In this document: positions 871-30,179 of the stretch, in pieces
Layout of the letters: every line of letters begins with the position of its first letter
Numbering within the stretch: the first letter of the stretch is position 1
Assembly (NCBI RefSeq): GCF_003334765.1
Contig: NZ_QOWT01000002.1
From: Escherichia coli
Lineage (GTDB): Bacteria; Pseudomonadota; Gammaproteobacteria; Enterobacterales; Enterobacteriaceae
Direction: 5' to 3' (one strand)
Length of the DNA: 64,000 nt
Notes under the pieces: generated by a model
The model's input: the letters and a program-made list of their open reading frames with translations, nothing else
Told to the model about the DNA's origin: nothing
The model's database searches: none
Position numbers and translations under genes: made by a program

Positions 871-2522
871 TGAAATCGGTACGTTACCTTATCGGCCTCT
901 TCGCGTTTATTGCCTGCTATTACCTGTTACCGATCAGCACGCGTCTGCTCTGGCAACCCGATGAAACGCGTTATGCGGAAATCAGTCGAGAAATGCTGGC
1001 ATCCGGCGACTGGATTGTGCCCCATCTGTTAGGGCTACGTTATTTCGAAAAACCCATTGCCGGATACTGGATTAACAGCATTGGGCAATGGCTATTTGGC
1101 GCGAATAACTTTGGTGTGCGGGCAGGCGTTATCTTTGCGACCCTGTTAACTGCCGCGCTGGTGACCTGGTTTACTCTGCGCTTATGGCGCGATAAACGTC
1201 TGGCTCTACTCGCCACAGTAATTTATCTCTCATTGTTTATTGTCTATGCCATCGGCACTTATGCCGTGCTCGATCCGTTTATTGCATTCTGGCTGGTGGC
1301 GGGAATGTGCAGCTTCTGGCTGGCAATGCAGGCACAGACGTGGAAAGGCAAAAGCGCAGGATTTTTACTGCTGGGAATCACCTGCGGCATGGGGGTGATG
1401 ACCAAAGGTTTTCTCGCCCTTGCCGTGCCGGTATTAAGCGTGCTGCCATGGGTAGCGACGCAAAAACGCTGGAAAGATCTCTTTATTTACGGCTGGCTGG
1501 CGGTTATCAGTTGCGTACTGACGGTTCTCCCTTGGGGACTGGCGATAGCGCAGCGGGAGCCTAACTTCTGGCACTATTTTTTCTGGGTTGAGCATATTCA
1601 ACGCTTTGCACTGGATGATGCCCAACATAGAGCTCCGTTCTGGTACTACGTGCCGGTCATCATTGCCGGTAGCCTGCCGTGGCTGGGATTACTCCCCGGT
1701 GCACTGTACACAGGCTGGAAAAACCGCAAGCATTCCGCAACCGTCTATTTGTTGAGCTGGACGATAATGCCGCTGCTGTTTTTCTCCGTCGCTAAAGGTA
1801 AATTGCCCACCTATATTCTTTCCTGCTTTGCATCTCTGGCAATGCTGATGGCGCATTACGCTTTGCTGGCAGCAAAAAATAATCCTCTGGCGCTGCGGAT
1901 TAATGGCTGGATTAACATCGCTTTTGGCGTCACTGGCATTATTGCCACATTTGTGGTCTCCCCGTGGGGACCAATGAACACGCCGGTGTGGCAAACCTTC
2001 GAGAGCTATAAAGTCTTTTGTGCCTGGTCGATTTTTTCGCTATGGGCATTTTTCGGCTGGTACACCTTAACAAACGTCGAAAAGACCTGGCCTTTTGCCG
2101 CGCTTTGCCCGCTGGGGCTGGCGTTGCTGGTAGGATTTTCAATTCCTGACAGAGTTATGGAAGGAAAACATCCGCAATTTTTTGTCGAGATGACACAAGA
2201 ATCACTTCAGCCAAGCCGCTATATTCTTACTGATAGCGTCGGTGTTGCCGCAGGTCTGGCATGGAGCCTGCAACGCGATGACATCATCATGTATCGCCAG
2301 ACAGGTGAGTTGAAATACGGCCTTAATTATCCGGATGCGAAAGGGAGATTTGTCAGCGGTGATGAGTTCGCAAACTGGCTTAATCAACATCGTCAGGAGG
2401 GGATTATTACTCTCGTGCTTTCGGTTGACCGCGATGAAGATATCAACAGTCTCGCCATTCCGCCCGCAGATGCCATCGATCGTCAGGAGCGTCTGGTGCT
2501 GATTCAGTATCGTCCCAAATGA
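870..2522 (+). CDS. arnT: ArnT, undecaprenyl-phosphate 4-amino-4-deoxy-L-arabinose transferase (lipid A modification)
   Basis: 550-aa ORF, strongly hydrophobic multi-pass membrane protein; start overlaps arnD stop; operon context. Confidence 0.95.
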
Positions 2523-2854
2523 TCTGGCTAACATTAGTCTTTGCCAGCTTGCTTAGCGTTGCCGGGCAGTTGTGTCAGAAACAGGCAACCTGCTTTGTGG
2601 CGATAAACAAACGGCGCAAACATATCGTGCTGTGGCTGGGACTGGCGCTGGCTTGTCTTGGTCTTGCCATGGTGCTCTGGCTGCTGGTCTTGCAGAACGT
2701 ACCGGTAGGCATTGCTTACCCGATGTTAAGTCTGAATTTTGTCTGGGTGACGCTGGCTGCAGTAAAACTGTGGCACGAACCGGTATCGCCGCGTCACTGG
2801 TGTGGGGTGGCGTTCATTATTGGCGGCATTGTGATCCTCGGGAGTACGGTGTAA
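2519..2854 (+). CDS. arnE: ArnE, small membrane flippase subunit for undecaprenyl-phosphate-L-Ara4N
   Basis: 111-aa hydrophobic ORF; ATG overlaps arnT stop (ATGA at 2519-2522). Confidence 0.92.
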
Positions 2855-3240
2855 TGGGCCTGATGTGGGGATTATTCAGCGTCATTATTGCCTCAGTTGC
2901 GCAATTAAGCCTGGGTTTTGCGGCGAGTCATCTGCCGCCGATGACGCACTTATGGGATTTTATCGCGGCTCTGTTAGCTTTTGGCCTGGATGCCCGGATA
3001 CTGTTACTCGGGCTGCTGGGTTATCTGCTTTCCGTTTTTTGTTGGTATAAAACGCTTCATAAACTTGCGCTAAGCAAAGCCTATGCCTTGCTCAGTATGA
3101 GTTATGTGCTGGTATGGATTGCTTCAATGGTACTTCCCGGCTGGGAAGGGACTTTTTCGCTGAAAGCACTACTGGGAGTAGCCTGTATTATGAGCGGGTT
3201 GATGCTGATTTTCCTGCCCACGACAAAACAACGTTACTGA
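2854..3240 (+). CDS. arnF: ArnF, small membrane flippase subunit
   Basis: 128-aa hydrophobic protein starting MGLMWGLF at the ATG overlapping arnE stop (TAATG at 2852-2856); the ORF track shows a longer same-frame ORF from 2572 that I reject. Confidence 0.88.
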
Positions 3241-3500
3241 GTTTTCCCTGCCACTTTACACTGCCGTTCCCACTCATCGGGGCTATAACTGCTTGCCGAG
3301 AGGACTTTCACCGTATGCAGCTTTTCACGATTAATACAATAAAGCGCATTCTGCAAAGGCGAGAGTAAATCCCCCACTTTCACGGCGAAGTCACTCTTCA
3401 CTTCGGCGATCATTTTTATCGCGCCGCCAGCATCGCAGAGCATAAGTACATGTCTGTTATCTTGTTTATTGCAGCACGATTTTTTGACCAGCCATTCCAT
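3234..3500 (-). CDS. pmrD: PmrD, connector protein linking PhoPQ to PmrAB (BasRS) signalling
   Basis: 88-aa product starting MEWLVKK recognised as PmrD; ORF track allows a 10-codon upstream extension to 3530; stop overlaps arnF stop tail-to-tail. Confidence 0.85.
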
Positions 3501-3609
3501 TGCATTATCCTGTTTGCTAAGAGTTTTCACATCAATTTACAGATTAACAGATAAACTCTTTATCAACGGCAATGGAATGGCAGAAATGAGAAGTGAAACG
3601 GAGGGTTAA

Positions 3610-4965
3610 TTATTGCTGACGTTGCACCCACTCTTTTAGCGCCTGACGTGAAATTTTAATACCGCCGTTTTTCAGCTCCGGCGGCAGAGTTAGCCAGCGC
3701 ACCGGTTGTTGAAAACGGGCCAGCTTATCTTTCACCCATTCACTAAGATCAACGCTCTCGTGGTCATACTCCATCACCGCCACCGGTCGATGACCAAACT
3801 CCTTGTCGGCAACGGGGACGATAAACACCTGCAAAACCGCAGGATGTGCAGCAATTACGCGCTCGACTTCTTCCGGCTGAATACCCTCTCCGCCACTGAA
3901 GAATAGATTGTCTAAACGTCCGACAATGGTCAGCTTGCCATTATGCATCTCACCGCGATCGCGCGTAGCGTACCAGCCTTCGTCATTAACCAGTGAAACC
4001 AGTTGCCCGTTACGCCAGTAACCTTCTGCCATACTGGCAGCCCGCAGCCACACTTCATTATTAACGATTTTCACTTCCCGACCCGGCAGCGGCGAACCAA
4101 CGTCTGCCAGGCCGTCGGCTTCTTTCGCACACACCGTGGAGGCAAACTCGGTCAGACCATAGCCGCAAAAGCAACGAATCCCCTGCTCGCGCGCCTGTTC
4201 CGTCAACTCGACCGGGATAGCCGCGCCGCCAAGTAACACCGCTTTCAGGGAAACGGAACTACGGTTAACCAGCAAACGCCAGAGTTGTGTTGGCACCAGT
4301 GAAGCGTGAGTACAGCCTGCCAGCATTTGCTCCAATGGCTGTTTATCACGTACCGTCATCCGCGCACCAGCGTATAACCAGCGCCACATAATTCCCTGAC
4401 CGGAGACGTGAAACAGCGGTAAAGAGAGCAACCAATCATCGTGATCGCCAAACGGAATCAGCGATAACACACCTTGCGCACTGGCAAGATGGGCCTGATA
4501 AGTATGGACAGCGGCTTTCGGCAAACCGGTAGAACCCGAGGTCAACGTCATTGAGCACAGACGCGTCGGCTGCCACGTAGCGGCATGTGCGCCTTCAACC
4601 AGCTGAATGTGCAGCGACGTTAATGCCGGAAACGTGTTTTCCCCATCCGGCACCAGAGCAAATTGCAGCGTCAGATTGGGCAGCAATTCTTCAAGCAACG
4701 GTTGCGGCAGCTGAGGGTTCACGGGCAACACCCGCGCCCCGCATTGCAGTAACGCCAGCCAGGCGAGCAGCGTTTGCGGCGTATTCCACGCCCGCAACAT
4801 CACGCCGCTGCCCTCAACCACCCCCTGCACCGCAAATCCGGAGGCTAATTCATCGACGCGAGCACAAAGCTCGCGCCAGTTGAGTTGCTCGTCATTAAGA
4901 CGTAAGGCGATGGTTTCTCCCCGCACTTGCCGCCAGTGACGCCACGGCCAGTCAGAGAAGATCAT
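3610..4965 (-). CDS. menE: MenE, o-succinylbenzoate-CoA ligase
   Basis: 451-aa ORF with AMP-binding motif [10 protein letters not shown]; start overlaps menC stop; men operon context. Confidence 0.95.
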
Positions 4966-30127: not shown

Positions 30128-30179
30128 TAGCATGCTTCCAGTTTTCTCAGTCAGAGACTGAGCGTTAATCGAAATTCGG

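Follow-up and report, generated by a model that had tools for sequence, protein, structure and literature searches.

A tail-to-tail coding overlap of arnF and pmrD in Escherichia coli and the putative PhoP-dependent promoter of pmrD

Related pmrD loci and the arnF–pmrD junction

The PhoPQ–PmrD–PmrAB circuit controls the modification of lipid A and, through it, polymyxin/colistin resistance. The strength of the PmrD link between the two systems in E. coli is disputed. PmrA has been demonstrated to repress pmrD in Salmonella, and mutation of the PmrA box reportedly abolished this PmrA-dependent repression. The pmrD locus of Salmonella enterica shares with that of E. coli K-12 the gene order menE–pmrD converging on arnF, the overlapping stop codons, and a promoter comprising a direct PhoP box 12 nt from the −10 hexamer, a proximal GTTTA, and a leader of 27–28 nt. 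On the other hand, the two loci differ in the length of the overlap (7 nt in K-12 and 6 nt in Salmonella), in the −10 hexamer (TAAATT and TAACGT, respectively), and at the PmrA repression site, where Salmonella has ATTAAT-N5-GTTAAT and K-12 has CTCCGT-N5-TTCTCA; the PmrD proteins of E. coli and Salmonella are approximately 55–59% identical. Klebsiella pneumoniae differs from K-12 in that its pmrD (L019:2501–2746) does not adjoin the arn operon; the neighbors of the gene are one for an alpha/beta hydrolase and amn (AMP nucleosidase), and it is followed by a co-directional gene. The K. pneumoniae gene is PhoP-activated and carries a PhoP box without a PmrA box (PMC2565834). As pmrD of Klebsiella is located elsewhere, the tail-to-tail layout appears to be confined to the Escherichia/Salmonella/Citrobacter group.

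Bidirectional intrinsic terminators are said to lie between convergent genes, as detected by SEnd-seq. Their setting is shared with arnF–pmrD, as two convergent units must stop in a very short space. The arnF–pmrD junction differs from them, however, as a GC-rich hairpin with A and U runs on its two sides is missing at and near it, and termination on the pmrD strand is Rho-dependent and distant. Like the convergent excludons, arnF and pmrD are convergent, functionally related genes with overlapping transcripts. The excludon pairs of E. coli have a mean intergenic distance of 95 nt (ExcludonFinder), whereas the coding regions of arnF and pmrD overlap.

Altogether, we consider, with a probability of about 0.8, that the locus is the known arn–pmrD–men junction, with a PhoP-dependent pmrD and with terminator-less, convergent, overlapping transcription units, in which the coding overlap is structural and any interference is at most modulatory. 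What is already known comprises the annotated overlap, the PhoP-target promoter, and the catalogued transcript overlap; beyond these there is only a testable hypothesis, which is treated in the last section.

The stretch of DNA analyzed here (64,000 nt; termed the window) covers MG1655 2370039–2434038, so that window position 1 corresponds to MG1655 2370039, and its first 5 kb, when compared with NC_000913.3, showed 0 mismatches. The plus strand carries arnD′, arnT, arnE, and arnF, and the minus strand pmrD, menE, menC, and menB. Based on open reading frames, translations, and the RefSeq annotation, arnF (2854–3240, plus strand; 128 aa) closes the arnBCADTEF operon, with an ATG that overlaps the arnE stop codon by 1 nt (TAATG), and pmrD (3234–3500, minus strand) encodes a protein of 88 aa (MEWLVKK...). 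The two coding regions share TTACTGA at 3234–3240 (7 nt), which comprises the TAA of pmrD on the minus strand (3234–3236) and, on the plus strand, a Tyr codon and the TGA of arnF (3238–3240). The sequence-only reading, which was made from the letters without database searches, had named both genes and had placed both stop codons and the shared 7 nt correctly, as we confirmed in the sequence and in RefSeq. The identical 7-nt overlap is annotated in MG1655 (arnF, 2372892–2373278; pmrD, 2373272–2373538) as well as in E. coli strains down to approximately 96% identity, and a 901-nt query around the junction matched 5420 of the 5426 complete genomes of E. coli. The junction is thus a known, annotated feature of E. 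coli K-12. Seven convergent gene pairs occur in the window, and arnF–pmrD is the sole overlapping one; the other six are separated by gaps of 32–272 nt.

Across genera, the genes stay adjacent while the spacing of the junction varies, namely −7 nt in Escherichia (including E. albertii), −6 nt in Salmonella (TCATGA), and +2, +3, and +9 nt in Citrobacter. Because of this variation, and because pmrD is found elsewhere in Klebsiella, we take the overlap for a structural trait rather than a tuned device. In the mechanism we favor, pmrD, a small connector gene acquired horizontally, stands tail to tail with arnF, and the coding overlap is regarded as a by-product of compact insertion.

The arnF side of the junction is altered in some genomes. 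In E. coli SCPM-O-B-8794 (NZ_JAATUR010000019; L006:2471–3803), only the last ~22 codons of arnF are left downstream of pmrD, and ORFs resembling ais, nudI, and yfaZ, recognized by eye from their translations, follow directly after the remnant. The remaining arn operon appears to be deleted in this strain, and its PmrD has a changed C-terminus (90 aa). The arnF of Escherichia sp. MOD1-EC7003 (L005:2764–3033) matches only over residues 39–128 and contains an in-frame stop codon, and that of S. enterica subsp. arizonae (L012:2782–3126) is a 114-aa ORF matching only over residues 1–84; both may be pseudogenes.

The promoter region of pmrD

The sequence-only reading had quoted a 22-mer upstream of pmrD, GTTTATCTGTTAATCTGTAAAT, as bearing imperfect PhoP-box-like (GTTTA) and PmrA-box-like (TTAAT) elements. 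The 22-mer is present as quoted at 3556–3535 on the minus strand, and we assign it to the putative core promoter of pmrD, as it would reach from the proximal half-site of the PhoP box across the spacer into the −10 hexamer, most of which it includes. By ungapped alignment to the footprinted Salmonella box, the PhoP box of pmrD is CGTTGA-TAAAG-AGTTTA (3552–3568, minus strand), in which GTTTA (3556–3552) is, by homology, the promoter-proximal half-site. Between AGTTTA and TAAATT lies a 12-nt spacer, TCTGTTAATCTG (3540–3551, minus strand), which contains the TTAAT at 3547–3543; the −10 hexamer TAAATT (3534–3539, minus strand) is homologous to Salmonella TAACGT, and a Shine-Dalgarno sequence, AGGA (3511–3508, minus strand), is found in the leader. 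From the alignment and the S1-mapped architecture of the Salmonella promoter (5 nt from −10 to +1 and a 27-nt leader), we infer that transcription of pmrD starts near 3528, corresponding to MG1655 2373566, giving a leader of approximately 28 nt.

The alignment included E. albertii, another Escherichia species, Citrobacter amalonaticus, C. freundii, and three subspecies or serovars of Salmonella enterica. Over the 130 nt 5′ of pmrD, no gaps were found through the core promoter among Escherichia, Citrobacter, and Salmonella. GTTTA was invariant in all of the 10 aligned sequences, which represent 3 genera, as were the 12-nt spacing and the TGTA leading into the −10 hexamer; Salmonella Infantis, for example, has CTATTGCCGTTTTGTTTAT and then TAACGT 12 nt on. 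The Salmonella pmrD box, TATTGC-CGTTT-TGTTTA, has been DNase-footprinted, and its −10 hexamer and 27-nt leader have been described (Zwir et al., 2012; PMC3335776). The GTTTA was thus rightly taken for part of a PhoP box, as borne out by homology with the footprinted site. The spacing of 12 nt between the box and the −10 hexamer defines the 'architecture I' promoters of PhoP (PMC3335776), and in K-12 one box in the direct orientation is located exactly 12 nt upstream of TAAATT, in place of a −35 element. We therefore favor a mechanism in which a class II ('architecture I') promoter dependent on PhoP, made up of the box at 3568–3552, the 12-nt spacer, and TAAATT, would drive pmrD. Activation of E. 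coli pmrD by PhoP in low Mg2+ and binding of PhoP are reported in the literature, as cited in PMC2565834 and PMC3140997.

Motif statistics are of little help in recognizing this box. The K-12 site agrees with the consensus (T/G)GTTTA-N5-(T/G)GTTTA at 9 of 12 positions, so that a scan retrieves it only when 3 mismatches are allowed, and at that threshold the window contains 180 matches vs approximately 126 expected. A PhoP-box scan, one of the checks proposed with the sequence-only reading, hence picks up the site, but at a level that the pattern alone could give by chance. The half-site GTTTA itself is found 120 times when both strands of the window are counted. In Salmonella, the pmrD box is just as degenerate and is missed by a single weight matrix (PMC2681069), yet it has been footprinted. 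Thus, the meaning of GTTTA comes from homology, not from motif statistics.

The second element fared differently. If the TTAAT in the spacer were a PmrA (BasR) element acting at the promoter, the GTTAAT there, which fits a PmrA half-site at 5 of 6 positions, would overlap the region contacted by RNA polymerase, and a protein bound to it would repress. A PmrA box, however, consists of two YTTAAK half-sites with N5 between them (PMC3973317), that is, 11 bp apart, and in the PmrA/BasR scan proposed with the sequence-only reading, YTTAAK-N5-YTTAAK was not found on the pmrD strand between 3501 and 3609, even with 3 mismatches allowed. The TTAAT has no partner in the 11-bp phase, and the two strands of the window hold 163 copies of the pentamer, approximately 2.5 per kb, as expected by chance. 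Outside Escherichia it is unconserved, as Salmonella has TTGAT and Citrobacter CTAAT or CTACT in the aligned columns. In Salmonella, the ATTAAT-N5-GTTAAT lies approximately 35 bp upstream of the PhoP box in the sequence, and the PmrA and PhoP boxes of pmrD are described as being approximately 38 bp apart (PMC2681069). The homologous position in K-12 (3587–3603, minus strand) reads CTCCGT-TTCAC-TTCTCA, with 7 mismatches to YTTAAK-N5-YTTAAK; in the alignment, Citrobacter and some of the Escherichia sequences have the first half-site of the box but not the second. Furthermore, E. coli pmrD is not among the promoters named as having PmrA sites (PMC2681069), and the feedback loop from PmrA to pmrD is described as absent in E. 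coli (PMC3140997). We thus find a PmrA element in the spacer very improbable and treat the TTAAT at 3547–3543 as a probable chance occurrence. The proposal of PhoP/PmrA-like half-sites upstream of pmrD therefore held for GTTTA, by homology, and was not supported for TTAAT, a lone and unconserved half-site.

In a genomic SELEX study, GTGAAA-16-GATAAT in the menE–pmrD spacer is listed as a 'constitutive promoter' of RpoD (PMC3946193). It maps to 3528–3523 and 3506–3501 on the minus strand, its −10 hexamer being merely 3 nt from the start codon of pmrD, and could bear on PhoP-independent expression of pmrD.

The start of pmrD is embedded in an array, ATGCAATGGAATGG (3505–3493, minus strand), with three ATGs in three reading frames, of which the second is the start codon; its use in E. 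coli has been shown experimentally (bioRxiv 10.1101/2021.07.26.453917). The same preprint describes a frameshift in Shigella flexneri, caused by the insertion of 1 bp, with which the function is lost (bioRxiv 10.1101/2021.07.26.453917). A 98-aa ORF starting at a GTG (3530) was discarded for pmrD, as the inferred transcription start lies inside that GTG and start site 2 is the one used experimentally, and a 46-aa plus-strand ORF (3469–3609) was rejected as well.

Transcript ends around the junction

The sequence-only reading had noted that the overlap leaves no room for a terminator between arnF and pmrD, and our scans agree with it, as no canonical intrinsic terminator was found nearby on either strand: none was detected downstream of the stop codon of arnF or that of pmrD, nor in the Salmonella junction. 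Folds of the junction showed no extra stability over shuffled sequence on either strand (z = −0.35 and −0.19), and Rfam gave no match in 2400–3800 even at E = 1. No Term-seq 3′ end was recorded in MG1655 2372600–2373799 on either strand in an LB culture (Adams et al., 2021). The sole match to Rfam at the gathering threshold in the whole window was the nuoG RNA element (30135–30177, minus strand; 50.3 bits) between nuoG and nuoF, and a search for tRNA genes in the window found none.

Beyond arnF, a brute-force hairpin scan picked up a single hairpin with a U-run, CGGCGAAGTcactcttcACTTCGGCG and then ATCATTTTT (3383–3417, plus strand), inside pmrD and antisense to it. We set it aside as the arn terminator, for which it is a weak, non-canonical candidate, as the hairpin (3383–3408) has a stability of only −9.3 kcal/mol, its U-run is displaced by 5 nt, and the standard scan missed it. 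Conserved PmrD codons account for the sequence, which E. coli strains share unchanged but E. albertii, Citrobacter, and Salmonella do not. A plus-strand promoter-like site at 3484–3511 was dismissed as chance, being a single consensus match vs 1.7 expected. Within arnF, approximately 90 nt before its stop codon, another terminator-like hairpin, CTTCCCGGCTGGGAAG followed by GGGACTTTTTC (3133–3148, plus strand), is probably due to chance; 5 such sites were found vs 1.7 expected in 1.5 kb.

On the pmrD strand, the menE stop codon (3610–3612, minus strand) is separated from pmrD by a spacer of 109 nt (3501–3609), in which the scan found no terminator-like site. Read-through from the men operon can therefore also enter pmrD, and may add to the pmrD mRNA and to RNA antisense to arnF and arnE. 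Downstream of pmrD, the most C-rich and G-poor stretch of the RNA is found at 2873–2794 (C/G ratio of 2.67), just upstream of a published minus-strand Rho peak at MG1655 2372815, which is window position 2777 and antisense to arnE (Rho score of 6.5, p = 2e-21; Adams et al., 2021, supplementary file 2). Bicyclomycin raises the read-through 6.5-fold there (Adams et al., 2021). As the Rho score was computed from 800-nt windows, with 163 reads per 800 nt in LB, the point at which the RNA stops is coarse. Both marks of a Rho-dependent terminator, C-rich and G-poor RNA and bicyclomycin-sensitive read-through, are thus found on the pmrD strand, and together they delimit a region at 2777–2873. The pmrD-strand RNA extends approximately 460 nt beyond the pmrD stop codon and is antisense to all of arnF; part of it may stem from the men operon. 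In the preferred reading, the pmrD promoter, probably together with men read-through, would be the source of this RNA, which would run through arnF into arnE, where Rho would stop it.

The 3′-end and Rho data come from LB, in which arn is poorly expressed, and hence carry no information on where arn transcripts end. We infer that the RNA of the arn operon would end inside or beyond pmrD, where either Rho or the weak hairpin (3383–3417) would fix its end. The arnF–pmrD pair would accordingly be a convergent overlapping transcription unit, or 'excludon', and its geometry is that of the convergent excludons, with overlap of the transcripts seen in published RNA-seq and bicyclomycin data. ExcludonFinder lists arnF–pmrD among 165 convergent excludons of MG1655, detected in half or more of the 58 RNA-seq data sets (NAR 2025), and picked it out as a functionally related pair (NAR 2025). 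Overlapping convergent transcription at arnF–pmrD is therefore already published.

Possible interference across the junction and the distribution of pmrD

The sequence-only reading had gone further and had taken arn read-through, antisense to pmrD, for a built-in negative feedback. In such a dedicated loop, PmrD stabilizes phospho-PmrA, PmrA activates arnBCADTEF, and the read-through beyond arnF would collide or pair with pmrD transcription and lower PmrD, as an Escherichia substitute for the PmrA-box repression of Salmonella. The junction without a terminator and the place of arnF–pmrD on the excludon list as a functionally related pair are in its favor, and as K-12 is without a Salmonella-type PmrA box, an alternative route of feedback would make sense. 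On the other hand, the layout in Salmonella is identically tail to tail (−6 nt), yet mutation of the PmrA box there reportedly abolished the repression, so that an antisense effect could hardly be strong. The Klebsiella PmrD is a working connector without an arn neighbor, and the sole read-through that has been measured goes the opposite way, being pmrD-strand RNA antisense to arnF and arnE.

Expression data bear on the same loop. In a ΔmgrB mutant of W3110, in which PhoPQ is hyperactive, pmrD was at 0.31-fold (PMC8355897, supplementary file 5) while arnB, arnC, arnA, and arnD (yfbE, yfbF, yfbG, and yfbH) were at 2.1–5.9-fold, mgtA at 36-fold, and yrbL at 5.8-fold (PMC8355897). This 3-fold fall in pmrD together with the rise in arnBCAD and other PhoP targets is in favor of the feedback loop and hints, against the reading we prefer, that interference may be more than marginal; however, it comes from one RNA-seq data set with a single comparison and unspecified strandedness. 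For the pair as a convergent excludon, the opposite changes of pmrD and arnBCAD would likewise hint at reciprocal expression. Weighing both sides, we hold a dedicated antisense feedback to be unlikely. The authors of the ΔmgrB study left the fall in pmrD, which occurred despite the activation of pmrD by PhoP, unexplained (PMC8355897).

The direction of the measured read-through raises the reverse possibility, in which PhoP-driven pmrD transcription and constitutive men read-through, running antisense across arnF and arnE, would damp the flippase genes, the overlap mainly tuning the distal genes of arn. The minus-strand Rho region at 2777 with its 6.5-fold response to bicyclomycin and the lack of a terminator between menE and pmrD agree with it, and the excludon listing applies to it too. 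Nevertheless, the read counts are low (163 per 800 nt in LB), Rho normally confines the antisense RNA to arnF and arnE, and the arrangement is absent in Klebsiella. Such a control of arn by pmrD therefore seems quite improbable to us.

Both directions could be combined in a two-way switch of Escherichia, in which arn read-through driven by PmrA would lower pmrD, closing the PhoP–PmrD–PmrA loop by antisense transcription, and pmrD-strand RNA driven by PhoP or from men would trim arnE and arnF. Its premise is that the PmrA box found at pmrD in Salmonella was lost or never gained in Escherichia. We rate this switch as rather unlikely. The antisense closure of the PhoP–PmrD–PmrA loop in E. coli is nonetheless a plausible, testable hypothesis with a modest prior. 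If arn transcription does lower pmrD, this would account in part for why the connector activity of E. coli is weak and condition-dependent, and would be a clean example of rewiring, with antisense transcription taking over a feedback from a repressor site. In the preferred reading of a structural overlap, mutual antisense interference is possible and would be at most modulatory.

The homologues of PmrD belong to Pfam PF11183, and the family is small, with 52 matches in a profile search of 1.84 billion representative proteins. PmrD-like ORFs of approximately 38% identity were also seen on plasmids of Klebsiella and Enterobacter, most of them annotated as hypothetical. In the K. pneumoniae IncFIB/IncHI1B plasmid pK55602_1, such an ORF (L020:3001–3255) is located beside genes for a helix-turn-helix regulator and an RND efflux pump.
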